A stretch of 64,000 nt of DNA from Mobula birostris (Eukaryota), in NCBI RefSeq assembly GCF_030028105.1, contig NC_092394.1, forward strand, positions 30,610,752 through 30,674,751. Reading direction: 5' to 3'. A program made the translations under genes and the position numbers. Under the pieces are notes generated by a model, which saw only the letters and a list, made by a program, of their open reading frames with translations, made no database searches and was not told the origin of the DNA. Positions 15,335 through 64,000 of this stretch are shown piece by piece (the first letter of the stretch is position 1; each line of letters begins with the position of its first letter).

Positions 15335-16430
15335 CATTTTACATAGGAGCCAATCAGCCCACCTCATCTGCTGTGCCATTCAATCATGGCTGATTTATTA
15401 TTCCCCTTGACCCCATTCTCCTGGCTTCTCCCTGTAACCTTTGACACCCTGACTGATCAAGCACCTGTCAATTTCTGCTTTAAGATTATTCAGTGACTTA
15501 GTCTCCACAGCTGTCCATGATAATGATTCACCACCCTTTGGCTAAAGAAATTCCTCCTCATCTCCCTATTCTGAGACTGTGCCGTATGGTCCTAAACTTA
15601 TCCACTATAGGAAGCATTCTCTCCACATCCAGTCAATATTCAATAGTTTCAATGAAATCTCCCCTCATTCTTCTAAACTCCAGTGAGTACAGGCCCAGAG
15701 CCATCAAACACTCCTCAAAGGTTAACACTTTCATTCCCAGAATCATTCTCATGAACCTCCTCTGGACCCTCTCTTATGCCAGCACATCTTTTCTTAGATA
15801 AGGAGCTCAAAACTGCTCACAGTACTCCAAGTACCACCTGACAAATGCCTTATAAAGCCTCAGCATTACATTCTGGCTTTAATATTTTAGTCCTTTCAAA
15901 TGAATGCTAACATTGCATTTGCCTTCCTTACCGCTGACTTAACCTGCAAGTTAATCTTTAGGGAATCCTGCACAAGGACTCGCAAGATTCCCTACACTAT
16001 ATTCCGTCTGCCACTTCTAGGCCCATTCTGCCACTCTGTCTAAGCCCTTCTGCAGAGTCCCTGCTTCCTCAACACTAACTGCCCCTCCACTGACAGTGTC
16101 TTTGTATTATTTGCATTCTTGGCCACGAGGTCATCAATTCCATCATCCAAATCATTGACATAGGGCATGAAAAGAAGTGGTCCCAATACCTCCACTGTAG
16201 AACACCACTTGTCACTGGCAGCCAACCAGAATAGATCCCCTTTATACCCACATTTTGCCTCCTGCCAGTCAGCTAATCATCTATCCATAGTAGTATCTTT
16301 CCTGTAATACAATGGCTCTTATCTTGTTAAGCAGCCTCATGTGTGGCACATTGACAAAGTCCTTCTGAAAGTCCAAATAAACAAAATCCACTGACTCTCC
16401 TTTGTCTACCCTGCCTGTTATTTCCTCAAT
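15335..16430 (-). mobile_element. CR1 LINE 3' fragment, degenerate
   Basis: ORF 16040..16225 has VLGPLLFMPYVNDLDDG. Nucleotide similarity to the intact CR1 at 59.8-61 kb. Confidence 0.85.
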
Positions 16431-17651
16431 GTCCTAAATTTTTGTATGTCTTTAAAATATTAAAGCTGCAACTGTTCTGGTGGTGAGAGGGGGTTTGTCA
16501 GTTAATACGCTGATTCTTTTCAGATTTTATGGACATCACCTTGATTACATCACAAGACATTATATTTACAACTACACTTCAATAGTGAAACTCATAATGA
16601 AAAATGCTCTCAATAGTTTGTTCAAATTGATTCAGAGAGAGATGCTGAGAATGAGTATGTAATTTATTAAGTAAATTTAGAGGCACATCTTATTGGCTTT
16701 TGCTCTTGTTGACCTCAAAGTCTAGCAAATGATAATTAAAAGATTGCAGTGTCAAAACTGCAAAAATCAGCAGTGTCAGAGTCAGAGAATCTAGAATATT
16801 TCCATTACTGTTTTGTTGAACATAATACATAAAGGTGGGAGTACGCTTTATGGCCATAAAGTTTACTCTGCCATTCAATCAGATCATGGCTGAAAATGTC
16901 TCTTGGATCTACTTGTCCATCCAACCATCATCTCTCTCAATCCATTAACTTACCAACCTTAGCCTCAATGATTCTCAATACACTTGATTACTTCTTCTTT
17001 CATATTAATATCAGTTGAAAATTTAGTTAGAAGTAAAAACAAATGTACACCATCCAAGTCAACTATACAAACAGTGAACATCCGAGGGCCCATCTAATCT
17101 ATGAGGAGCTATTAATCTGCCTAGACCCATCAACCTGCACCTGGAGCATAGCCCTCCATACCCCTCACATCCATGTACCTATCCAAATTTCTCTTAAATT
17201 TTGAAATCAAACCTGCATTCATTACTTACACGGGGAGCTCATTCCACACTCTGCCCATCCTGAGTGAAGAAGTTGTCCCTTGTGTCCTTTTTCAACATTT
17301 CACCTTTCACCCTTAACCCAGGACCTTTAGTTCTAGTCACACCCAACCTCAGTGGAAGAAGCTTGCTTCCATTTATCTTATCTATACCCCTCATCATTTT
17401 GTATACGTTTATCAAATCTCCCCTCAATCGTCTACACTGCAAGGAATAAAGTCCTAACCTATTCAATCTCTCCCTATAACTCAGCTCCTCCAGTCCCAGC
17501 AATGTCCTTGTAAATTTTCTCTGCACTTTTTCAATCTTATTTTCATCTTTCCTGGAGGTAGGTGACCAAAACTAGACAAATATTCCAAGCAACACACATC
17601 AAAGTTGCTGGTGAACGTAGCAGGCCAGGCAGCATCTCTAGGAAGAGGTAC

Positions 17652-17687
17652 AGTCGACGTTTCGGGCCGAGACCCTTCATCAGGACT
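17652..17687 (-). ncRNA. Minimal type I hammerhead ribozyme motif
   Basis: Minus strand reads AGTC-CTGATGA-A-GGG(tctcgg)CCC-GAAAC-GTC^GACT. Core intact, stem I AGTC/GACT, stem II GGG/CCC, loopless palindromic stem III (ACGT). Confidence 0.8.
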
Positions 17688-17885
17688 AACTGAAGGAAGA
17701 GCTAGTAAGAGATTTGAAAGTGAGAGGGGGAGGGGGAGATCCAAAATGATAGTCCTCTCATATCCCTTTTGCCAATCACCTGTCCAGCTCTGGCTCCATC
17801 CCTCCCCCTCCTGTCTTCTCCTATCATTTTGGATCTCCCCCTCCCCCTCTCACTTTCAAATCTCTTACTAGCTCTTCCTTCAGTT

Positions 17886-17921
17886 AGTCCTGACGAAGGG
17901 TCTCGGCCTGAAACGTCGACT
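17886..17921 (+). ncRNA. Minimal type I hammerhead ribozyme motif
   Basis: AGTC-CTGACGA-A-GGG(tctcgg)CCT-GAAAC-GTC^GACT. Core intact, one G-U pair in stem II. Confidence 0.78.
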
Positions 17922-18499
17922 GCACCTCTTCCTAGAGATGCTGCCTGGCAGCAACTTTGATGTGTGTTGCTTGAATTTCCAGCATCTGCAGAATTCCTCG
18001 TGTTTACAAATATTCCAAATTAGGCCTCACGAATGTCGTATATAACTTAAACATAACAGCTTATCTCCTGTACTCAGAAGATTGATTTATGAAGGCCGAT
18101 GTGCCAAAAGGTTTCTTTACGACCCTATTTACCTCTGATGCCACTTTCAACGAATTATGGATTCCCAGATCTCTCCGTTCTACTGCACTCCTCAGTACCC
18201 TATTGCTCACCGTAGAAGACCTGCCCTAGTCGGTCCTCCCAAAGTGCAACACCTCACACTTGCCTGCATTAAGTTCCATCTGCCATTTTCAGTCCGTTCC
18301 AGCTGGTCCAGATCCTGCTGCAAGCTTTGATAGTCATCTTTGCTGTGCACTACATCCTCAAACTTCGTGTTTTATGATGTAAGAACATCCTCTAGTGCTG
18401 CATTTCAAATGCTTTTGGAAAATCCTGATATACTTTACCTTCCGGTCCCTCTTTTCTGTCCAGCTAGTTATACATGGCAGTCTCAATTTTTACATCATA

Positions 18500-18870
18500 A
18501 AACCATAAAACCATAAGACAAAGGAGCAGAAGTCGGCCATTCAGCCCATTGAGTCTGCTCCTCCATTTTATTATGAGCTGATCCATGCTCCCATTTAGTC
18601 CCACTCCCCCGTCTTCTCACCATAACCTTTGATGCCCTGGCTACTCAGATACCTATCAATCTCTGCCTTAAATACACCCAATGACTTGGCCTCCACTGCC
18701 GCCCGTGGCAACAAATTCCATAGATTTACCACCCTCTGGCTAAAAAAGTTTCTTCGCATCTCTGTTCTGAATGGGCGCCCTTCAATCCTTAAGTCATGCC
18801 CTCTCGTACTAGACTCCCCCATCATGGGAAACAACTTTGCCACATCCACTCTGTCCATGCCTTTCAACAT
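18500..18870 (-). mobile_element. Young CR1 LINE 3' end (5'-truncated)
   Basis: ORF 18595..18870 has TRGHDLRIEGRPFRTEMRRNFFSQRVVNLWNLLP. Short tandem tail (aaaccata)n at ~18500-18516. Confidence 0.92.
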
Positions 18871-19177
18871 TAAACCATTTTGACTGTCTAATGTTTTCCC
18901 AAATGTCCTAAGAACATGTTTTTAATGTTTATTTGACTGTACAGAAATACTGATCTGATGTAATACTGATCCATTAAATCCAGTGTTTTGTGCAAATTTG
19001 TGATTGAAAACCACAAGGGTCCTCAAGGAAGAGGATTTAAAAGAATGCCTCTTGGATTTCCATTTTGCAATCTATAAGCCTCAGTAATTTTGCATTTTTA
19101 AATTTGCCATCAATCTGTGTGTATTTTTATTGCTTCTTTTTGCTAATAAAAACTATCTTCTTTGCTACTTCTGAACT

Positions 19178-20466
19178 TCCGCATTGGAGGTTGGTCAAGA
19201 AGGTTCAGTCATTTGACATTCAGGATGAGGTAGCAAATTGGATTAGATATTGGCTCTGTGGGAGAAGTCAAAGTGGTAGTAGATGGTTGTCTCGATGACT
19301 GGAGGCCTGGGACTAGTGGAGTGTCCCAGGGATCGATGTTGGGTCCATTGTTGTTTGCCATCTGTCGCTACGATCTGGATGATAATGCAGTTAACTGGAT
19401 CAGCAGATTTGCAGATGGCATCAAGATTGGAGGTGTCGTGGACAACAAGCAAGGCTATCATAGCTTGCGACAGGATCTGGACCAGCTGGAAAAATGAGCT
19501 GGAAAATGGCAGGTGGAATGTAATGCAATAAGTGCAAGGTTTTGCACTTCAGTAGGACCAACCAGGGTAGGTCTTACACAGTGAACGGCAGGACACTGAG
19601 GAGTGCTGTAGAGCAAAGGGATCTGGGAATACAGCTCCATAATTTACTGTAAGTAGCTTTACAGGTAGAAAGGATCGTAAAGAAAGCTTTTGGCACCTTG
19701 GCCTTCATAAATCAAAGGACCGAGCACAAGAGATGGGAAGTTATGTTGAAGTCATACAAGACATTGGTGAGGCCTGATTTGGAGTATTTGTCTTGTTTTG
19801 GTTACCTACCTCCAGGAAAGATGTAAATAATGTTGAAAGGGTCATCATCATCAGGTGCCATGCCCAGTTTGAGCTTGACTGCCATGGCCCACACACTCCT
19901 GTTTCGGGTCAAGTGGATCAATTCATTGGTATTCACTTCCAGTTCTCTGGCTGCTGTCTCCATCAATTGTCTTTGTCTTGTTGAAAGAGTGCAGAGAAAA
20001 TTTACAAGGATGTTGCTGGGATTGAAGAAGCTGAGTTATGAGGAGCCATTGATTAGTATAGGACTTTATTCCTTGCAACATAGAACATTGAGGGAGATTT
20101 GATAGTGGTATACAAAATTATAAGGGGTATAGATGGGGTAAATGCAAGCAGGCTTTTTCCACTTAAGTTGGATGGGACTACAGCTAGAAGTCATGGGTTA
20201 AGGGTGAAAGGTGAAAAGTTTAAGGGGAACATGGGGGTAACTTCTTCACTCAGAGGGTCATGAGTGTTTGGAATGAGCTGTTAATGCAAGTGATGCATAT
20301 GAGCTTGATTTTAACATTTAAGAGATGTTTGGATAGATACATGGATAGAGTATGGAGGGCTATGGTCCCAGTGCAGGTTAATGGGATTAGGTAGTTTAAA
20401 TGGTTTGGCATGGACAATATGGGCCAAAGGGCATGTTTCTGATCTGTACTTTTCTATGACTCCGTG
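19178..20466 (+). mobile_element. CR1 LINE 3' fragment
   Basis: SGVSQGSMLGPLLF..ISRFADG (RT), VERVQRKFTRML, and a ttctatgact tail. Confidence 0.9.
19843..19978 (-). mobile_element. Short RTE-like LINE 3' end inserted in CR1
   Basis: (GAT)n tail on the minus strand. 12-bp TSD with one mismatch: tgttgaaagggt (19831-19842) and tgttgaaagagt (19979-19990). The clade assignment is inferred from the tail and C-terminal peptide. Confidence 0.7.
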
Positions 20467-29998: not shown

Positions 29999-30860
29999 TC
30001 ATAACATAGAATAGTACGCACAATACAGGCCCTTCAGCCCACAATGTTGTGCCGACCCTCAAACCCTGCCTCCCATATAAGCCCCCATATACCTGTCTAG
30101 TAGTCTCTTAAATTCCTCCATATACCTGTCTAGTAGTCTCTTAAACTTCACTAGTGTATCTGCCTCCACCACTGACTCAGGCAGTGCATTCCACGCACCA
30201 ACCACTCTCTGAGTAAAAAACCTTCCTCTAATATCCCCCTTGAACTTCCCACCCCCTACCTTAAAGCCATGTCCTCTTGTATTGAGCAGTGGTGCCCAGG
30301 GGAAGAGGCGCTGGCTATCCACTCTATCTATTCCTCTTATTATCTTGTACACCTCTATCATGTCTCTTCTCATCCTCCTTCTCCCCAAAGAGTAAAGCCC
30401 TAGTTCCCTTAATCTCTGACCATAATGCATACTCTCTAAACTAGGCAGCATCCTGGTAAATCTCCTCTGTACCCTTTCCAATGCTTCCAGATCCTTCCTA
30501 TAGTGAGGCGAACAGAACCGGACACAGTACTCCAAGTGTGGCCTAACCAGAGTTCTATAGAGCTGCATCATTACATCGCGACTCTTAAACTCTCTCCCTC
30601 GACTTATGAAAGCTAACACCCCATAAGCTTTCTTAACTACCCTATCCACCTGTGAGGCAACTTTCAGGGATCTGTGGACATGTACCCCCAGATCCCTCTG
30701 CTCCTCCACACTACCAAGTATCCTGGCCATTTACTTTGTACTCTGCCTTGGAGTTTGTCCTTCCAAAGTATACCACCTCACACTTCTCTGGGTTGAACTC
30801 CATCTGCCACTTCTCAGCCCACTTCTGTATCCTATCAATGTCTCTCTGCAATCTTTGACA
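29999..30860 (-). mobile_element. Young CR1 LINE 3' fragment
   Basis: ORF 30059..30730 (223 aa) has EQRDLGVHVH..YRTLVRPHLEYCV..LERVQRRFTRML. Internal ~33-bp tandem duplication at 30086-30147. Confidence 0.93.
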
Positions 30861-33842
30861 ATAATGTTACCCGGTTAATCCTGACACCACGTGCCAGCCA
30901 ATAATGGCTGAATGTCTGGTATGACACACTTACAAAAGAGATTTTCTAATCTCTTAATAAATTTGAGAAATGCAAGATTGAAGTAGAATATCAGTGATCC
31001 TTTCAGTTCACCTGAGAGAGCAGGCAAGCGTGGATAAAAATCACATCTGAAAGTTGACACCACTGACTGAAAATTTTGTGTACTAGTCCTCCAGGTTCAA
31101 TGGAAAACTCATTATCAACCGAGTCATTACATTTACATGATGTTAGAAATATATATCTTTGTATTTTTAGACAAGAATTTGCATCTATACCTGAGCCAGC
31201 CAGAAACTTTGTATGCAGGCATTATTTTTTTAAATTATCATTTTTAGGATATAAAGCAAACAATCTGTGTTGACATTGAAAGCAATAAGTGATCGGATGA
31301 TCCTTTGTGGGATTGCTACTAAATCCTGAAATTTGTTACTATTCATTTCAGTTTATATTCAGAAATTTGTGCCATTAGAAAGCATTGTACTTATATTCTA
31401 TTTCCCTGAACTGCTGTAGTCCAAAAGTATAAGGTCACTAATCTCAGCCATCAGAGCTCTTTTTGTTCCACCTAATCCTCTTCCTCACTTTCTTACTTAT
31501 TTCTTTTTCTCAGACCTGAAACATTAACTGTGCATAACTTATGTTTTTCCTGTGAATGCTGCTTATACAAAGCTACATGCCTCTGCATTACATGAAAATA
31601 AATTTAACTTTGATTCTCTGCTTTTATTTAACATTTCTAGCAGCTGAGAGTTTTTTTAATTTCATGATTACTTTTGTCCTATTTGTGTTATCTTGATGAT
31701 AGGGTAGTTCATTTACCAGGAATATTTCAACATGCTAAAAGGCAGTTCACAGTTGGTATTACATAAACTGGAGCTGTTGTCCAGACATTTTACACCATGG
31801 AGTAAATAAGACATATTTTCTTTGAAAAGTTTTGGCCAACTTTTTTTTGTTAAAAGTGTTTTTGATGTTACAAGTTTTCAGTCTTTGTTTTATGCACCAT
31901 TCGTGATTGGAAAAAAAAATCGTTTTCAACCTTTCATCATACCACTGTAGTCGGTCACAAGATGTAAACATGGAACTTGTTCTGTGGTTTTGCCAGTACT
32001 TCCCCTTGACTAAAATGAGGAAATTATATATATATCAGAACCATATAAAATTCCACCTCTGAGCAAAATACAAATTCTCAAGAATAAATCTAGAAAACAT
32101 CCTCAGACATTCTTCAAAGTACATACCACCTCAAATAAGACCAAACCTGATTGCAGTACTTCAGGTTTTATCTCAAAGCCTTGTACAATCATAGTACTTT
32201 ACTTCTGTGCTTTGTCCCCTTTGTAATAAAAGCCATTGCTCCATCTGTATTCCTAATTACTTGATGCATCTGCATACCAACTTTGTTTCATATATCACTC
32301 TACAGGAGCACTTTGTAGTCCAACTCCATTTAGACAATTTGCTCTTTTCTATTCTGCCTAGCAATGTATAACTTTACATTCCTTAAATTGTACTGTATAC
32401 CCTTGCAGATTCTTTGCCCAGCCCTTACAACCTACTGTACTTACCCAATTATCATTTTATAGTACACAAATACACCCTTACCATTATCTTGGCCATTACT
32501 CCTGATTATAAATAGTTGATGCACCAGCACTGATCTTTCTACCACACATCTGACCAACTTGAAATTGATTTATTTATCCCAGCTGTTTTCTGTTACTTAG
32601 CTGATCCTCAATCTATTCTAATACAGTGTATGCAATATCATGAGTTTTTGCATCGCATTCGCAGAGCCTTCAGCATAGTCAATGACCCGCCTCGTCCATC
32701 GTACGTTGGTTTTGACTCCTACCGTCAAGTAGAACAAGGACTGTTAGACTGCATAACATCATCTTCTTCCAGGCCATGAGGCTTCTGAACACGCCACTAC
32801 CATCCAGTGTACATTATTTATGATGGCTTAAGTAGCATTCTACAGTATATCTAACTATATGTAGTAGTTGCACTCTATGTCAACTTGTATATCCTCTACA
32901 GAACTTTTTTGAATTATGTTATTATTTTATGTGATATATGCACCGCGCTTAGCACAGAGGAACATTGTTTTGTTTAGCTGTTTACATGTGTACAGTTGAA
33001 TAATAAACCTGAATATGTGCAGTAACCTTTTATGTGGCACCTCATCAAATACCTTTTAGAAATCCAAATACACTTAATTTGTTGTTTTCCTTTTCCCACC
33101 TTGTTCATTATGCTCTTTAAAAAAATCAGTCAAATGTGATTTTTCTTTCTTGCTGCTTATTAATACAATTTTCTACAATTTGCTAACTACAGATTCTAGC
33201 ATTTCCTTAATGGTAGTCATTGCTTCTGCAATATATGTTATGGTCTTCCAAACTCCTGTATGTATATTGTATCCCTACAGCCACCTAGAATACAGGCCAT
33301 CGGGTCCAAGGGACTTGTCAGACTTAAGTCCCATTAGTTTATTTTACACATATTTTCCGGCAAAAATTATTTCATAAAAATTCCAACCTCCCCTTTCTAC
33401 CTAAGATGATTATTAGTTATTGACTAATTTTATTTTCTTCCACTCTGAAAATACCTACAAAATATTCGTTGAAAGTCTCTACCAGATATTTTATCTTTAT
33501 TTCTCTTTCTCAATTTTTACTTAAGCCCATCAACGGCCCTTTATACACTTGGGTGAAATGCTTGCTGAATAATTTTATATTTCATACTTATTTACTCTTA
33601 AGTCTACTTTCTTCCGCTATGCTTTTCTGCCTTCTAAATTTTGCCCCCACTCTGCTGGCTTACCACTTACAACACAGTATACCTTTCAATTGGAGGCAAT
33701 ACTTTCCTTTAAGTAAGCTGCTGATGGATCAACCTTTCAAAGAGTTTTTAAGTCAATGGCAAATTTTTCCTTAAAGGTGTACCACTACTTAGCCACATTA
33801 CCCGTTACTATATTACCCTGTGCACCTTAACCATCTAGACCG

Positions 33843-41849: not shown

Positions 41850-43270
41850 TGATATTGGGCAAGATGTTATTAAGCCTATGATTTGTGGGATGTGGCTAAG
41901 AACCTAGGAAGTGATAGAGGTAGGGTTGAAGAGTTTGGTTAATGTCAAAGGAAAGTAAAAGATTGTATATCTGGAGGAAGATGGAGCATTACAGACAAGT
42001 GTTCTTATCGGTTTTATGCAGTAGAATTTTTTTTGCATGTGTCATTAATCAAGAACACTTTTTGACTAGTGATTTTTGGATCAGCTGCAATTTGGAATGA
42101 AAGGCCAACAAAAAGGACATGGGCGTGGGTGGGTAAGAGAGAGCGGAATGATTAATGAGTTCATTGAAAGTGGAGTGGTTCTGGTGATAAGATTCGTTAA
42201 TATTCCATGAGGAATATAGAGGAAGCAGTAATTTTTGTTTAATTGGGAGGGGTAGAGGTGGCCATGGAAAGTCCTTGGCAAACAGGTTTAAGGAGAATCC
42301 CAAAGCATTTACTATGCTTATTAAGAACAAGGGGTAAAAAGGCAGCCCTCTCAAGCACAAAAGAGGGAATTTATGTGTGGGTGCTGATTAAGTGGATGAG
42401 TTCTTAAATGAGTGGAATCCGCTTTCAATAAGGAGAATGATATGGATGATGGTGAGATCAGGGAATCATATGTTGATATTTTAAGGCTTGTTGAGATACA
42501 AAAGAGGATATTAGATATTAGTTGGGTGTCTTTGAAAATGTCAAGGTGGATAAATTCCCAGGGCAGTGAACTATCCCAGAATACCAAGAAAGGAGAATGC
42601 TTGGGCCTTGACAAAATGTTGTTATCTTCAGCTGCAGACAAGGTCCCAAAAAATGAGAGAATAGCCAGTAATGTTCTTTTGCACAAGAGAGGTAATGGAA
42701 AATTCAGAAAATCATAGGGCAGTAGCCTTGGATCAGTGGTAAGGAAATTATTGGAGAAGATTCTTTGGGATAGAATTCACTTGCATTTAGAAAAGCATGG
42801 GCTTATTAGGAATTGTCTGCAGGGCTTTTTGCGAGGGAAGTCATGCTCACAAATTTTATTGAGGACATGATGAAGGTGATTGAAGGTAGGGTGGTGGATG
42901 TTATCTACATGGACTTTAGTAAAGCTTTTCACAAGGTCCCTTACGATAGGTTGGTCAAGAAGTTTGAGTCACAGGGTAAGTTGTGCATAAAACTGGGTTG
43001 GTTATAGAAGATAGAGGATTGTTATGGAGAAGATTTTTTTCTCTGACTGGAACTCTGAGACCAGCAGTGTTCCACAAGGATTAGTGATGAGACTACTGTA
43101 ATAACTAAATGATTTGGACAAAATTTTAGGTAAGGTTGCAGATGACATTGCTGGAGATGAAGATCATGAGGAAGATTGTTGAAGGATCATTTAGGAATTT
43201 GGGTGGAGAAATGGTAGATGGATGAATGTGAAGTAATGCATTTTGGGAGGTCAAATGCAAGAGAAGTGTA
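41850..43270 (+). mobile_element. Old degenerate CR1 ORF2 fragment
   Basis: ORF 42813..43007 has LTNFIE..VDVIYMDFSKAFHKVP. gtgttccacaagga gives VPQG. Confidence 0.75.
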
Positions 43271-50258: not shown

Positions 50259-51195
50259 TGTGACGAGAAGACGAGAATACACATAGATAAGATGTTAGCT
50301 GTCCTGTGTGATCAGCAGTTGGTCTGCCACCTGTCTTCAAGAGAGAGATAAGGAACACAATGAAACGATCTGGAGATGTGTAATGAAGGGACGGGGGAGA
50401 GAGAGAGCTGTCTGGAGTGGCTCCCCCTTTGAACCCTGAACTGTTTGAAGTGATGGACAGGCGATACCCCAGCAGGGGGATAAAAAGGGACAGGTTCGCT
50501 AAGGCAGGACACACGACACCCGAGGTAACGAGACCCTGGAAGCGGTGCGCCTCTCACGAGTCGGTGGGAAGTACCGGACAACGCACAGGGTGGAAAGGTA
50601 CGATCAGCGGGAACCCGGTGTGTGTCCACCCTTGCTTGGGTGCCGGGTTCACTGCAGAGGATCGACCGTATCTGGAGGAGGGGTCACAGTGGGTGACCTC
50701 AGGTGACATCACCAAGGACCTGCCCAAAAGTTGCTTGTGAGCAATTATCGCCCGTCTGTGAGTGGAAGCCGTTTCNNNNNNNNNNNNNNNNNNNNNNNNN
50801 NNNNNNNNNNNNNNNNNNNNNNNNNNNNNNNNNNNNNNNNNNNNNNNNNNNNNNNNNNNNNNNNNNNNNNNNNNNNNNNNNNNNNNNNNNNNNNNNNNNN
50901 NNNNNNNNNNNNNNNNNNNNNNNNNNNNNNNNNNNGCAACGATTACTGCGAACTGAACTTTGTGTCACTTTGAAATTGGTCATTTATCCCTAGACAACGA
51001 TAGAGCTTGATTGATGCTGTTATCTTAATTCTGTGCACATGTGTGGTTATCATTGCTGAACTGTTGCATTTATTATCCTTTCGATTACTGTGTTGCTTGT
51101 TTCTTTAATAAAACTTTCTTAGTTCTAGTAATCCAGACTCCAACTGAGTGATCCATTTCTGCTGGTTTGGCAACCCAGTTACGGGGTACGTAACA
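50259..51195 (+). repeat. 3' LTR (contains assembly gap)
   Basis: Copy of the 5' LTR with roughly 20 substitutions and a few indels by eye, including an 8-bp gacgagaa duplication at its start. Confidence 0.95.
50776..50935. other. Assembly gap (160 N)
   Basis: Run of N. Confidence 1.
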
Positions 51196-59550: not shown

Positions 59551-59892
59551 TGTAGATTAAATAAATTTCACTTTGCCTTCTTGTGAACCTGAGCAATTAA
59601 TCAATGGAACCAATGCTCATTCTGAGGAAGAGTTATTCATGATCCTTCAATAAATCAGATTACCTTCTGTCTCTAGGGTGATTTTCTAAAAATAAATTTG
59701 AATCCATGGTTGTAATATGACATTTATTGACATTATACGAGAAGTGATTAACTGTTACACTTTATAGGGGTTTCTTGTCTTTTTTCAATGTCTTGATTAT
59801 ACATAGAAACATAGAAAATAGGTGCAGGAGTAGGCCATTCGGCCCTTCGAGCCTGCACCGCCATTTATTATGATCATGGCTGATCATCCAAC

Positions 59893-62800
59893 TCAGAACC
59901 CCGCCCCAGCCTTCCCTCCATACCCCCTGACCCCCGTAGCCACAAGGGCCATATCTAACTCCCTCTTAAATATAGCCAATGAACTGGCCTCAACTGCTTC
60001 CTGTGGCAGAGAATTCCACAGATTCACCACTCTCTGTGTGAAGAAGTTTTTCCTAATCTCAGTCCTAAAAGGCTTCCCCTCTATCCTCAAACTGTGGCCC
60101 CTCGTTCTGGACTTCCCCAACATCAGGAACAATCTTCCTGCATCTAGCCTGTCCAATCCCTTTAGGATCTTATACGTTTCAATCAGATCCCCCCTCAATC
60201 TTCTAAATTCCAACGAGTACAAGCCCAGTTCATCCAGTCTTTCTTCATATGAAAGTCCTGCCATCCCAGGAATCAATCTGGTGAACCTTCTTTGTACTCC
60301 CTCTATGGCAAGGATGTCTTTCCTCAGATTAGGGGACCAAAACTGCACACAATACTCCAGATGTGGTCTCACCAAGGCCTTGTACAACTGCAGTAGTACC
60401 TCCCAGCTCCTGTACTCGAATCCTCTCGCTATAAATGCCAGCATACCATTCGTCTTTTTCACCGCCTGCTGTACCTGCATGCCCACTTTCAATGACTGGT
60501 GTATAATGACACCCAGGTCTCGTTGCACCTCCCCTTTTCCTAATCGGCCACCATTCAGATAATAATCTGTTTTCCTATTTTTGCCACCAAAGTGGATAAC
60601 TTCACATTTATCCACATTAAATTGCATCTGCCATGAATTTGCCCACTCACCCAACCTATCCAAGTCACCCTGCATCCTCTTAGCATCCTCCTCACAGCTA
60701 ACACTGCCCCCCAGCTTCGTGTCATCCGCAAACTTGGAGATGCTGCATTTAATTCCCTCATCCAAGTCATTAATATATATTGTAAACAACTGGGGTCCCA
60801 GCACTGAGCCTTGCGGTACCCCACTAGTCACCGCCTGCCATTCTGAAAAGGTCCCGTTTATTCCCACTCTTTGTTTCCTGTCTGCTAACCAACTGTCCAC
60901 CCACACCAATACCTTACCCCCAATACTGTGTGCTTTAAGTTTGCACACTAATCTCCTGTGTGGGACCTTGTCAAAAGCCTTCTGAAAATCCAAATATACC
61001 ACATCCACAGGTTCTCCCCTATCCACTCTACTAATTACAACCTCAAAAAATTCTATGAGATTCGTCAGACATGATTTTCCTTTCACAAATCCATGCTGAC
61101 TTTGTCCGATCATTTCACTGCTTTCCAAATGTGCTGTTATCACATCCTTGATAACTGACTCCAGCAGTTTCCCCACCACCGACGTTAGGCTAACCGGTCT
61201 ATAATTCCCCGGTTTCTCTCTCCCTCCTTTTTTAAAAAGTGGAGTTACATTAGCCACCCTCCAATCCTCAGGAACTAGTCCAGAATCTAACAAGTTTTGA
61301 AAAATTATCACTAATGCATCCACTATTTCTTGGGCTACTTCCTTAAGCACTCTGGGATGCAGACCATCTGGCCCTGGGGATTTATCTGCCTTCAATCCCT
61401 TCAATTTACCTAACACCACTTCCCTACTAACATGTATTTCGCTCGGTTCCTCCATCTCACTGGACCCTCTGTCCCCTACTATTTCTGGAAGATTATTCAT
61501 GTCCTCCTTAGTGAAGACAGAACCAAAGTAATTATTCAATTGGTCTGCCATGTCCTTGCTCCCCATAATCAATTCACCTGTTTCTGTCTGCAGGGGACCT
61601 ACATTTGTCTTTACCAGTCTTTTCCTTGTTACATATCTATAAAAGCTTTTACAGTCCGTTTTTATGTTCCCTGCCAGTTTTCTCTCATAATCTTTTTTCT
61701 CCTTCCTAATTAAGCCCTTTTTCCTCCTCTGCTGAACTCTGAATTTCTCCCAGTCCTCAGGTGAGCCACTTTCTCTGGCTAATTTGTATGCTTCTTCTTT
61801 GGAATTGATACTATCCCTAATTTCTCTTGTCAGCCACGGGTGCACTACCTTCCTTGATTTATTCTTTTGCCAAACTGGGATGAACAATTGTTGTAGTTCA
61901 TCCATGCAATCTTTAAATGCTTGCCATTGCATATCCACCGTCAATCCTTTAAGTGTCATTTGCCAGTCTATCTTAGCTAATTCACGTCTCATACCTTCAA
62001 AGTTACCCCTCTTTAAGTTCAGAACCTTTGTTTCTGAATTAACTATGTCACTCTCCATCTTAATGAAGAATTCCACCATATTATGGTCACTCTTACCCAA
62101 GGGGCCTCTCACGACAAGATTGCTAATTAACCCTTCCTCATTGCTCAAAACCCAGTCCAGAATAGCCTGCTCTCTAGTTGGTTCCCTGACATGTTGGTTC
62201 AAAAAACCATCCCGCATACATTCCAAGAAATCCTCTTCCTCAGCACCTTTACCAATTTGGTTCACCCAATCTACATGTAGATTGAAGTCACCCATTATAA
62301 CTGCTGTTCCTTTATTGCACACATTTCTAATTTCCTGTTTAATACCATCTCCGACCTCACTACTACTGTTAGGTGGCCTGTACACAACTCCCACCAGCGT
62401 CTTCTGCCCCTTAGTGTTACACAGCTCTACCCATATCGATTCCACATCTTCCCGGCTTATGTCCTTCCTTTCTATTGCGTTAATCTCTTCTTTAACCAGC
62501 AACGCCACCCCACCTCCCCTTCTTTCATGTCTATCCCTCCTGAATATTGAATATCCCTGAACATTGAGCTCCCATCCCTGGTCACCCTGGAGCCATGTCT
62601 CTGTGATCCCAACTATATCATAATCATTAATAACAATCTGCACTTTCAATTCATCCACCTTATTACGAATGCTCCTTGCATTGACACACAAAGCCTTCAG
62701 GCGCTCTTTTACAACTCTCTTAGCCCTTATACAATTATGCTGAAAAGTGGCCCTTTTTAATGCTTGCCCTGGATTTGTCGGCCTGCCACTTTTACTTTTC

Positions 62801-62925
62801 TCCATAGTACTTTTTGCTTCTACCCTCACTTTACACCCCTCTGTCTCTCTGCACTGGTTCCCATCCCCCTGTTGTGAACTAACCTCCTCACGCCTAGCCT
62901 CTTTAATTTGATTTCCACTCCCCAA
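59893..62925 (-). CDS. CR1 ORF2: APE endonuclease and reverse transcriptase
   Basis: APE motifs NARS, GITETW, GGGVA, GDFN and SDH. RT motifs YRPVSLTS, DFQKAFD, GVPQGSVLGP and FADD. The track start at 62925 is TTG; the first ATG is at 62805. Confidence 0.95.
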   Translation of the reverse strand: MGSGNQIKEARREEVSSQQGDGNQCRETEGCKVRVEAKSTMEKSKSGRPTNPGQALKRATFQHNCIRAKRVVKERLKALCVNARSIRNKVDELKVQIVINDYDIVGITETWLQGDQGWELNVQGYSIFRRDRHERRGGGVALLVKEEINAIERKDISREDVESIWVELCNTKGQKTLVGVVYRPPNSSSEVGDGIKQEIRNVCNKGTAVIMGDFNLHVDWVNQIGKGAEEEDFLECMRDGFLNQHVREPTREQAILDWVLSNEEGLISNLVVRGPLGKSDHNMVEFFIKMESDIVNSETKVLNLKRGNFEGMRRELAKIDWQMTLKGLTVDMQWQAFKDCMDELQQLFIPVWQKNKSRKVVHPWLTREIRDSINSKEEAYKLARESGSPEDWEKFRVQQRRKKGLIRKEKKDYERKLAGNIKTDCKSFYRYVTRKRLVKTNVGPLQTETGELIMGSKDMADQLNNYFGSVFTKEDMNNLPEIVGDRGSSEMEEPSEIHVSREVVLGKLKGLKADKSPGPDGLHPRVLKEVAQEIVDALVIIFQNLLDSGLVPEDWRVANVTPLFKKGGREKPGNYRPVSLTSVVGKLLESVIKDVITAHLESSEMIGQSQHGFVKGKSCLTNLIEFFEVVISRVDRGEPVDVVYLDFQKAFDKVPHRRLVCKLKAHSIGGKVLVWVDSWLADRKQRVGINGTFSEWQAVTSGVPQGSVLGPQLFTIYINDLDEGIKCSISKFADDTKLGGSVSCEEDAKRMQGDLDRLGEWANSWQMQFNVDKCEVIHFGGKNRKTDYYLNGGRLGKGEVQRDLGVIIHQSLKVGMQVQQAVKKTNGMLAFIARGFEYRSWEVLLQLYKALVRPHLEYCVQFWSPNLRKDILAIEGVQRRFTRLIPGMAGLSYEERLDELGLYSLEFRRLRGDLIETYKILKGLDRLDAGRLFLMLGKSRTRGHSLRIEGKPFRTEIRKNFFTQRVVNLWNSLPQEAVEASSLAIFKRELDMALVATGVRGYGGKAGAGF

Positions 62926-62930
62926 CCATT

Positions 62931-63866
62931 CTAGTTTAAAGTCACCTCAGTAGCCCCCGCTAATCTCCCTGCCAGGATATTGGTCCCCCTAGGATTCAAG
63001 TGCAACCCGTCCTTTTTGTACAGGTCACGCCTGCGCCAAAAGAGGTCCCAATGATCCAAAAACTTGAATCCCTGCCCCCTGCTCCAATCCCTCAGCCTCG
63101 CATTTATCCTCCACCTCATCGCATTCCTACTCTCACTGTCGCGTGGCACAGGCAGTAATCCCGAGATTACTACCTTTGCGGTCCTTTTTCTCAACTCCCT
63201 TCCTAGCTCCCTGTATTCTCCTTTCAAGACCTCATCCCTTTTCCTTCCTATGTCATTGGTACCTATATGTACCACGACCTCTGGCTCCTCACCCTCCCAC
63301 TTCAGGATATCTTGGACACGATCAGAAATATCCCGGACCCTGGCACCAGGGAGGCAAACTACCATCCGGGTCTCTGGACTGCGTCCACAGAATCGCCTAT
63401 CTGACCCCCTTACTATCGAGTCCCCTATCACAACTGCCCTCCTCTTCCTTGCCCTACCCTTCTGAGCTACAGGGCCAGACTCTGTGCCGGAGGCACGGCC
63501 ACTGTCGCTTCCCCCGGGTAAGCTGTCCCCCCCAACAGTACTCAAACAGGAGTACCTGTTGTTAAGGGGCACAGCCACCGGGGTACTCCCTATTACCTGA
63601 CTTTTCCCCTTCCCCCTCCTAACCGTGACCCACTTGTCTGCCTCCCGTGGCCCCGGCGTGACCACCTGCCTGCAACTCCTCTCTATCACCTCCTCACTCT
63701 CCCTGACCAGACGAAGGTCATCGAGCTGCAGCTCCAGTTCCGTAACGCGGTCCCTTAGGAGCTGCATCTCGATGCACTTGGCGGAGATGTAGACGTCCGG
63801 GAGGCTTGGAGACTCCAGGGCCTCCCACATCCGACACCGAGAACAGCAAACTGCCCTCACACTCAT
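62931..63866 (-). CDS. CR1 ORF1: zinc finger/leucine zipper and SGNH esterase
   Basis: ATG at 63866 (MSVRAVCCSRC). Zipper LRDRVTELELQLDDL. SGNH blocks VIGDSIVRG, HIGTND and DGLHLN. Confidence 0.93.
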   Translation of the reverse strand: MSVRAVCCSRCRMWEALESPSLPDVYISAKCIEMQLLRDRVTELELQLDDLRLVRESEEVIERSCRQVVTPGPREADKWVTVRRGKGKSQVIGSTPVAVPLNNRYSCLSTVGGDSLPGGSDSGRASGTESGPVAQKGRARKRRAVVIGDSIVRGSDRRFCGRSPETRMVVCLPGARVRDISDRVQDILKWEGEEPEVVVHIGTNDIGRKRDEVLKGEYRELGRELRKRTAKVVISGLLPVPRDSESRNAMRWRINARLRDWSRGQGFKFLDHWDLFWRRRDLYKKDGLHLNPRGTNILAGRLAGATEVTLN

Positions 63867-64000
63867 ACTGCCCCTCTCCTCAAATAACAACAGAAAATGA
63901 ATGCCAAACCTTCCTCGCCTGTTTCCGCCTAAGCCCGTTGAGCCGAAGCCCTTAAGTCTTCACTCTGCTCCCGGCTCACTCCGCAGCCTGCAAACTACGC

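Follow-up and report, generated by a model that had tools for sequence, protein, structure and literature searches.

A conserved slippery heptamer at the end of CR1 ORF1 points to -1 ribosomal frameshifting as the probable route to the reverse transcriptase

How does a CR1 retrotransposon translate its reverse transcriptase (RT) when the second reading frame opens without a conserved start codon? The question is raised by a 64,000-nt stretch of the Mobula birostris genome (NC_092394.1, positions 30,610,752 to 30,674,751; hereafter the window), whose minus strand carries an intact young CR1 LINE with an esterase-type ORF1 (Table 1). CR1 is described as the most abundant retrotransposon in most vertebrates (PMC13343379). 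ORF2 of the window element contains the Pfam APE and RT families and no further one, and its 3' end is similar by eye to published amniote CR1 rows (PMC4316615, supplement), the supplement files searched giving matches near the ORF2 3' end only. The genome (4.0 Gb) holds many near-identical copies (97-100% identity in the 40 scored of 320 candidates), and the named ORF1 homologues among the matches listed come from sharks, rays, coelacanth, frogs, turtles, squamates and a hummingbird, the closest being from rays. CR1 LINEs end in a short 3' UTR that has a stem-loop and, in place of poly(A), an 8-nt repeat tail, and so does this element. At the other end, the farthest 5' position in the alignment (window-equivalent 64249) is reached by 5 of 29 young copies; the 5' UTR of locus L161 (window-equivalent ~64030-64249) contains a GC-rich unit of ~40 nt twice, ~170 nt apart, possibly a duplicated internal promoter module. 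The rest of the window includes older 5'-truncated LINE fragments with ORF2 similarity (15517-20334, 30128-30860, 31-351, 32138-32284 and 42643-43227), none of them with an ORF1/ORF2 junction, and 160 nt of N (50776-50935) far from the CR1 element.

Table 1. Features of the CR1 element, in window coordinates.
Feature	Position	Strand	Basis or remark
5' UTR, 3' part	63867..64000	-	element start ~250 nt past the window edge
ORF1, 311 aa, C-terminal SGNH/GDSL esterase, ending L-N-stop	62931..63866	-	ATG at 63866; Pfam; homologues
Esterase domain of ORF1	62985..63431	-	PF13472, residues 146-294, E 2.9e-16
TGA closing the -1 frame, two codons 5' of the heptamer	62947..62949	-	sequence
Putative slippery heptamer T_TTA_AAC, X_XXY_YYZ phase on ORF1	62934..62940	-	90/107 loci exact
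ORF1 stop directly 3' of the heptamer, TAG (TAA/TGA in other families)	62931..62933	-	sequence, cross-family comparison
G-rich tract GGGG-R-NN-GG-R, +11 to +20 from the heptamer, candidate structure-free stimulator	62914..62923	-	conserved columns
Open -1-frame linker, slip site to endonuclease	62701..62933	-	0 stops in -1 frame
First in-frame ATG, polymorphic ATG/AAG	62803..62805	-	28 young copies
APE endonuclease domain	62074..62700	-	PF03372, PF14529; start set at first beta strand
Reverse transcriptase core	60571..61224	-	PF00078, E 1.4e-33
ORF2 frame, stop to stop, 1017 codons, unbroken	59893..62946	-	open reading frame
3' UTR, stem-loop ~59859-59821, 8-nt repeat tail TTTCTATG x2, without poly(A)	59801..59892	-	stem-loop z -2.13

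ORF1 ends GTG ACT TTA AAC TAG. An earlier note on this DNA had read these letters as T_TTA_AAC, phased X_XXY_YYZ and adjoining the ORF1 stop, with a TGA two codons upstream closing the -1 frame; both letters and coordinates proved correct, and the -1 frame is open from directly after that TGA to the end of ORF2. Taken in a single copy the 10-mer is weak evidence, because TTTAAAC followed by TRR is common in this AT-rich window (5 observed vs 1.5 expected); the same string with a G tract at +11 occurs once in the window, and a match was found in 0 of 100 shuffles. The evidential weight of the heptamer lies in its conservation across families, beyond any one copy.

Our reading is that ORF2 of CR1 is, very probably, made as an ORF1-ORF2 fusion of ~1,324 aa by programmed -1 frameshifting. 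A fraction of the ribosomes would slip back one base on U_UUA_AAC, the tRNA-Leu and tRNA-Asn leaving UUA and AAC and re-pairing on UUU and AAA, and would continue via the linker into the APE and RT domains. Unshifted ribosomes would terminate at once and release ORF1p, and this immediate termination would set a high ratio of ORF1p to fusion, as with gag and gag-pol. The G tract may act as a protein-bound single strand at the mRNA entry channel, with no pseudoknot, and the adjacent stop may add to the ribosome pause. A heptamer of the form X_XXY_YYZ, phased on the zero frame, is how a -1 frameshift signal is defined (PMC3542737), and the marks of such a signal found at this junction are a phased heptamer, an open -1 ORF without a conserved AUG and conservation at synonymous sites. 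We favour frameshifting because of the phased heptamer, the open -1 linker, the lack of a conserved AUG, the LN/GN/KN pattern of ORF1 ends and proteins that run on as F-K-L, and also because the G tract matches the position of the C-rich stimulator of PRRSV, 11 nt downstream. The earlier note had proposed a frameshift fusion of ~1320 aa; 311 plus 1013 codons make 1,324, and the comparative tests presented below support the proposal, the mechanism itself being what we infer from them.

The junction was compared across 161 loci, gathered with divergent ORF1 queries of the own genome and including 38 from metagenome contigs, those of the latter that reach the junction being nearest to bird or reptile ORF1 proteins. 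The esterase His motif anchored 139 of them and 107 have an intact ORF1 end, defined blind to the heptamer by an ORF1 stop 25-30 codons past the His motif and at least 30 nt beyond; the 54 left out were unanchored, truncated or broken. In this sample, which was anchored with LN-ending proteins and has 99 of its 107 loci from one genome, TTTAAAC is exact in 90, from ray families to bird/reptile-type elements; in 17 it is absent or altered, which counts against frameshifting. Columns 1-7 of the heptamer are kept in 21, 23, 22, 23, 22, 23 and 23 of the 23 cluster representatives, and it is kept in 7 of 7 groups at <70% identity. From the codons used across these ORF1 regions (TTA for 16 of 160 Leu, AAC for 37 of 99 Asn, 25% T-ending codons) a joint expectation of ~0.009 follows, and nearby conserved residues use the same codon in 93 of 221 comparisons (42%). 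Conservation at synonymous positions, a check proposed in the earlier note, is thus found beyond the codon-usage background, and the stop that follows varies among families between TAG, TAA and TGA. Judged from these alignments, the putative slip site is deeply conserved and no peculiarity of one copy.

Some ray families (L032, L037, L050, L055, L060 and kin) have a G run directly 5' of the heptamer, giving G_GGU_UUA overlapping U_UUA_AAC, that is, tandem slippery sites; the run varies in length and ORF1 is broken in many of these copies. CR1 loci were not found in viral contigs, and GTDB contigs gave one 506-nt CR1 fragment. Locus L129 and proteins P0020 and P0089 are vertebrate CR1 ORF1 labelled as bacterial (Providencia, Pseudomonas) or flatworm, labels most likely due to host or sample contamination.

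The ends of ORF1 proteins extend the comparison. The LN ending, which the earlier note gave as frequent in amniote CR1 ORF1 proteins, is borne out by 76 of the 83 homologues with the His motif near the C-terminus (120 homologues listed), LN-ending proteins occurring in all the animal groups named above. A more distant set, with <50% mutual identity, was drawn from a profile search, whose 150 best-scoring cluster representatives include 94 that qualify; here 46 proteins end in LN, 11 in GN and 3 in KN. The preceding residue is one whose codons all end in a purine in 1 of the 46 LN proteins vs 9 of the 11 GN proteins (Fisher p 6e-8, ignoring relatedness): Gln precedes GN in 9 of 11, and Ser or Ala precedes KN. 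These preceding residues fit X_XXY_YYZ, since U_UUA_AAC, G_GGA_AAC and A_AAA_AAC would give LN, Q-GN and S/A-KN, respectively, and from the proteins alone we infer that the GN and KN ends correspond to G_GGA_AAC and A_AAA_AAC heptamers. Seven further distant proteins have [STRA]KN at the matching internal offset with the stop farther on, so the adjacent stop would not be needed everywhere; 27 of the 94 lack both an LN/GN/KN end and the internal KN, and these count against frameshifting. Two database proteins from broken copies (P0037 and P0056) continue as F-K-L, the -1 reading of the heptamer. U_UUA_AAC, G_GGA_AAC, A_AAA_AAC and G_GGU_UUU are all named among the shiftiest heptamers (PMC5009743).

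Other distant ORF1 proteins (P0190, P0199, P0236, P0286, P0288, P0290 and P0293) end in GF, FF, FFR, GFR or GFLG, which may reflect G_GGU_UUU or U_UUU_UUY heptamers. Viral contigs gave no DNA relatives of the GN/KN-ending families, own-genome searches for these families returned LN-type families only, and a weak search for longer, fused proteins found none.

What lies beyond the heptamer agrees in frame. The earlier note had asked if ORF2 is always in the -1 frame: the modal linker length keeps this register (a multiple of 3) in 12 of the 16 clusters with a measurable linker, the exceptions being three single old copies that are off-frame and one old 9-copy cluster that is mixed. The linkers differ in sequence and also in length (99, 105, 129, 132, 141, 156, 183, 198, 240 and 312 nt), and single-locus linkers of 222, 252 and 171 nt are likewise in the -1 frame. 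Stops number 0 in the -1 frame of the window linker vs 7 and 9 in the other two frames; intact young copies show the same, with the -1 frame open and several stops in the others. As to where ORF2 might start on its own, the ATG at 62805, named in the earlier note as its first, is present in the window and polymorphic among relatives: 28 young copies with a 240-nt linker have ATG in 16 and AAG in 12, and most or all of the depth falls on the AAG base in contigs assembled from four runs of two other organisms. This ATG is no conserved start. Without it the next Met is deep inside the endonuclease, and a Met before the endonuclease is absent in 10 of 27 open copies of the window's family and, for two other families of the same genome, in every open copy (5 of 5 and 6 of 6). 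Upstream of the heptamer the -1 frame closes within 1-37 codons, with an ATG there in 0 of 17 representatives; in the window no upstream ATG can reach ORF2, because of the closing TGA. In contigs of two runs of one organism, positions 62662-62909 (linker and endonuclease start) are skipped without splice-type ends, probably marking an internally deleted subfamily.

The main rival is termination-reinitiation near the ORF1 stop, either AUG-independent as in L1 or at a UAAUG as in SART1, in which case the conserved letters would be a termination/reinitiation context. We consider it unlikely. It is a described LINE route, which the same sources name for ORF2 and call unresolved (PMC2881922, PMC3894237, PMC5009743), and in 6 of 10 amniote-type loci an ATG does stand in frame at the fourth or fifth -1-frame codon from the heptamer start, which counts against frameshifting; however, ray families lack it, and an ATG within the first 7 codons is seen in 5 of the 23 cluster representatives and in 0 of the 15 from the own genome. 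Nor did the 23 representatives yield a conserved AUG overlapping or adjoining the ORF1 stop, TAATG occurring in 1 (the amniote-type locus L119, ORF1 end at 1998, where the heptamer is followed by a SART1-like stop-start atop the slip site), or near-cognate start codons at any shared position. Moreover, reinitiation calls neither for a phased X_XXY_YYZ nor for an LN/GN/KN switch with a matching preceding residue, and the seven distant ORF1s hold KN at the same offset despite their later stop. Both routes could coexist in birds.

A second alternative, which we regard as very improbable, joins the frames in the RNA: either the stop supplies a YAG splice acceptor, or the polymerase slips and adds a base. 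Bird-type copies do have an acceptor-like TTTAAACTAG-G, and some ray families TTTGCAG-G just after; yet the AG is missing at the stop in TAA/TGA families and at the second site in the window's family, and since it is not kept, splicing is unlikely. The site has no long homopolymer, and its phase-lock to the codons of ORF1 speaks for an event at the ribosome. Among the rows shown for contigs from four sequencing runs, presumed to be RNA, there was no splice-type joint and no heptamer indel; rare forms are dropped in contig assembly, so that this weighs neither way.

New here is a G tract that starts 11 nt after the heptamer, with GGG at +12 to +14 in 23 of 23 clusters. Numbering from the last base of the heptamer, the 23 representatives carry G 20 times at +11, without exception at +12, +13 and +14, 22 times at +18 and 20 times at +19. 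In the -1 frame, +11 and +14 both fall on codon wobble positions; at +11 the G persists whether the codon is for Leu, Gln, Lys, Arg or Ala. These elements have a background of 38% G at third positions, and GGG makes up 46% of their Gly codons; set against this the excess is real, if less extreme than that of the heptamer. The tract also encodes G-x-G in the -1 frame, and this, like the share of GGG among Gly codons, counts against our reading. Of the suggestion in the earlier note that a G-rich downstream tract may stimulate the shift, the conserved tract and its fixed position from +11 stand as observations, and the stimulator role is our interpretation.

No conserved local fold follows the heptamer (z -1.67 to +0.99 in 17 representatives, under a nested-structure model), a canonical stem-loop or pseudoknot 5-9 nt downstream was not found, which counts against frameshifting, and Rfam has no match at the junction. 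Two structural candidates were rejected: a G-quadruplex, predicted by ViennaRNA in 6 of 17 and not conserved, and a long-range partner for the tract, whose best duplexes fall at differing places in 10 long copies (4 of 14 were left out, 3 without a matching junction and 1 with a short ORF2). A linear motif ~11 nt downstream, of the PRRSV type, is present in the form of the G tract. PRRSV has, instead of structure, a C-rich motif to which nsp1beta and PCBP bind, 11 nt past its shift site (PMC7939443); protein-linked linear stimulators are placed 12-15 nt from the shift site, and in pea enation mosaic virus a stop 3 nt past it matters for shifting (both PMC5009743). By this analogy we give about even chances to the G tract being a stimulator that acts as protein-bound single-stranded RNA; such a stimulator would likely be of a new type. 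As for what might bind it, hnRNP H/F and CNBP are presumably candidates, and the basic region of ORF1p is an alternative one; both proposals are speculation.

The remotest alternative, for which we see hardly any chance, is that overlapping protein constraints fix the letters (L-N for the esterase, F-K-L-x-x-x-G-x-G for ORF2) while ORF2 is started by another means, such as a shorter transcript: a 7-nt overlap would restrict codons and would explain the tract as G-x-G, but a -1-frame constraint at the heptamer requires translation there, which without an upstream AUG is frameshifting again, the +11 wobble G is kept over differing codons, and farther on the linker is conserved in neither sequence nor length.

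If frameshifting is the route, the annotated start of CR1 ORF2 is wrong, the RT is tethered to a membrane-binding esterase, the ribosome sets the ORF1p:ORF2p ratio, and host anti-frameshift factors could restrict CR1; a 30-nt cassette would make the shift directly testable. To our knowledge, vertebrate genomes have so far yielded few conserved -1 frameshifts. A wider picture, which we advance tentatively and hold to be somewhat more doubtful than probable, is that the Gag-Pol-like RT fusion of CR1, which dominates among the LINEs of sharks, reptiles and birds, predates the jawed-vertebrate split, that its structure-free G-rich stimulator forms a new class, recognised either by a G-tract-binding protein of the host or, as a feedback switch, by ORF1p, and that deeper esterase-LINE lineages swap the four best viral heptamers. 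In the literature searched we found no report of frameshifting at the CR1 junction, which the 1990s chicken and turtle CR1 papers or Repbase notes may mention; the main text of a 2026 survey of vertebrate CR1-group elements contains neither frameshift, overlap nor start codon.

The CR1 junction shares traits with several known systems and differs from each of them: (i) L1 and SART1 are, like CR1, LINEs with a bicistronic RNA, on which the yield of ORF2 depends on ORF1 being translated (PMC2881922); their ORF2p is a protein of its own, in SART1 from a UAAUG stop-start, whereas in CR1 a slippery heptamer is conserved and an AUG is not. (ii) Recoding has also been suggested for Paramecium non-LTR groups 1-3 and for Drosophila HeT-A (PMC5405496; PMC5009743), but the Paramecium elements would use a +1 shift, reinitiation or readthrough, and in HeT-A the shift lies inside the gag gene. 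(iii) The U_UUA_AAC of the coronavirus IBV and retroviral gag-pol signals share the heptamer class and phase with CR1 (PMC3542737, PMC5009743), as well as a layout with a structural ORF upstream and the polymerase in the -1 frame; these viral signals have a stem-loop or pseudoknot 5-9 nt downstream, whereas none is predicted in CR1. (iv) The -2/-1 frameshift of PRRSV nsp2, driven by nsp1beta and PCBP on CCCANCUCC, resembles CR1 in having a short motif of low complexity 11 nt past the shift site and no RNA structure (PMC7939443); in CR1, by contrast, the motif is G-rich, the heptamer is canonical and the binding protein is only hypothetical. (v) TRE5-A and TRE3-A of Dictyostelium are two-ORF APE-RT LINEs whose ORF2 is stated, in a figure legend, to require a -1 frameshift (PMC5911963), so that such a shift in a LINE has a precedent. 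They belong to another clade and host, have another type of ORF1 and target tRNA genes; set beside them, CR1 has an adjacent stop and a G tract that are kept from rays to birds.
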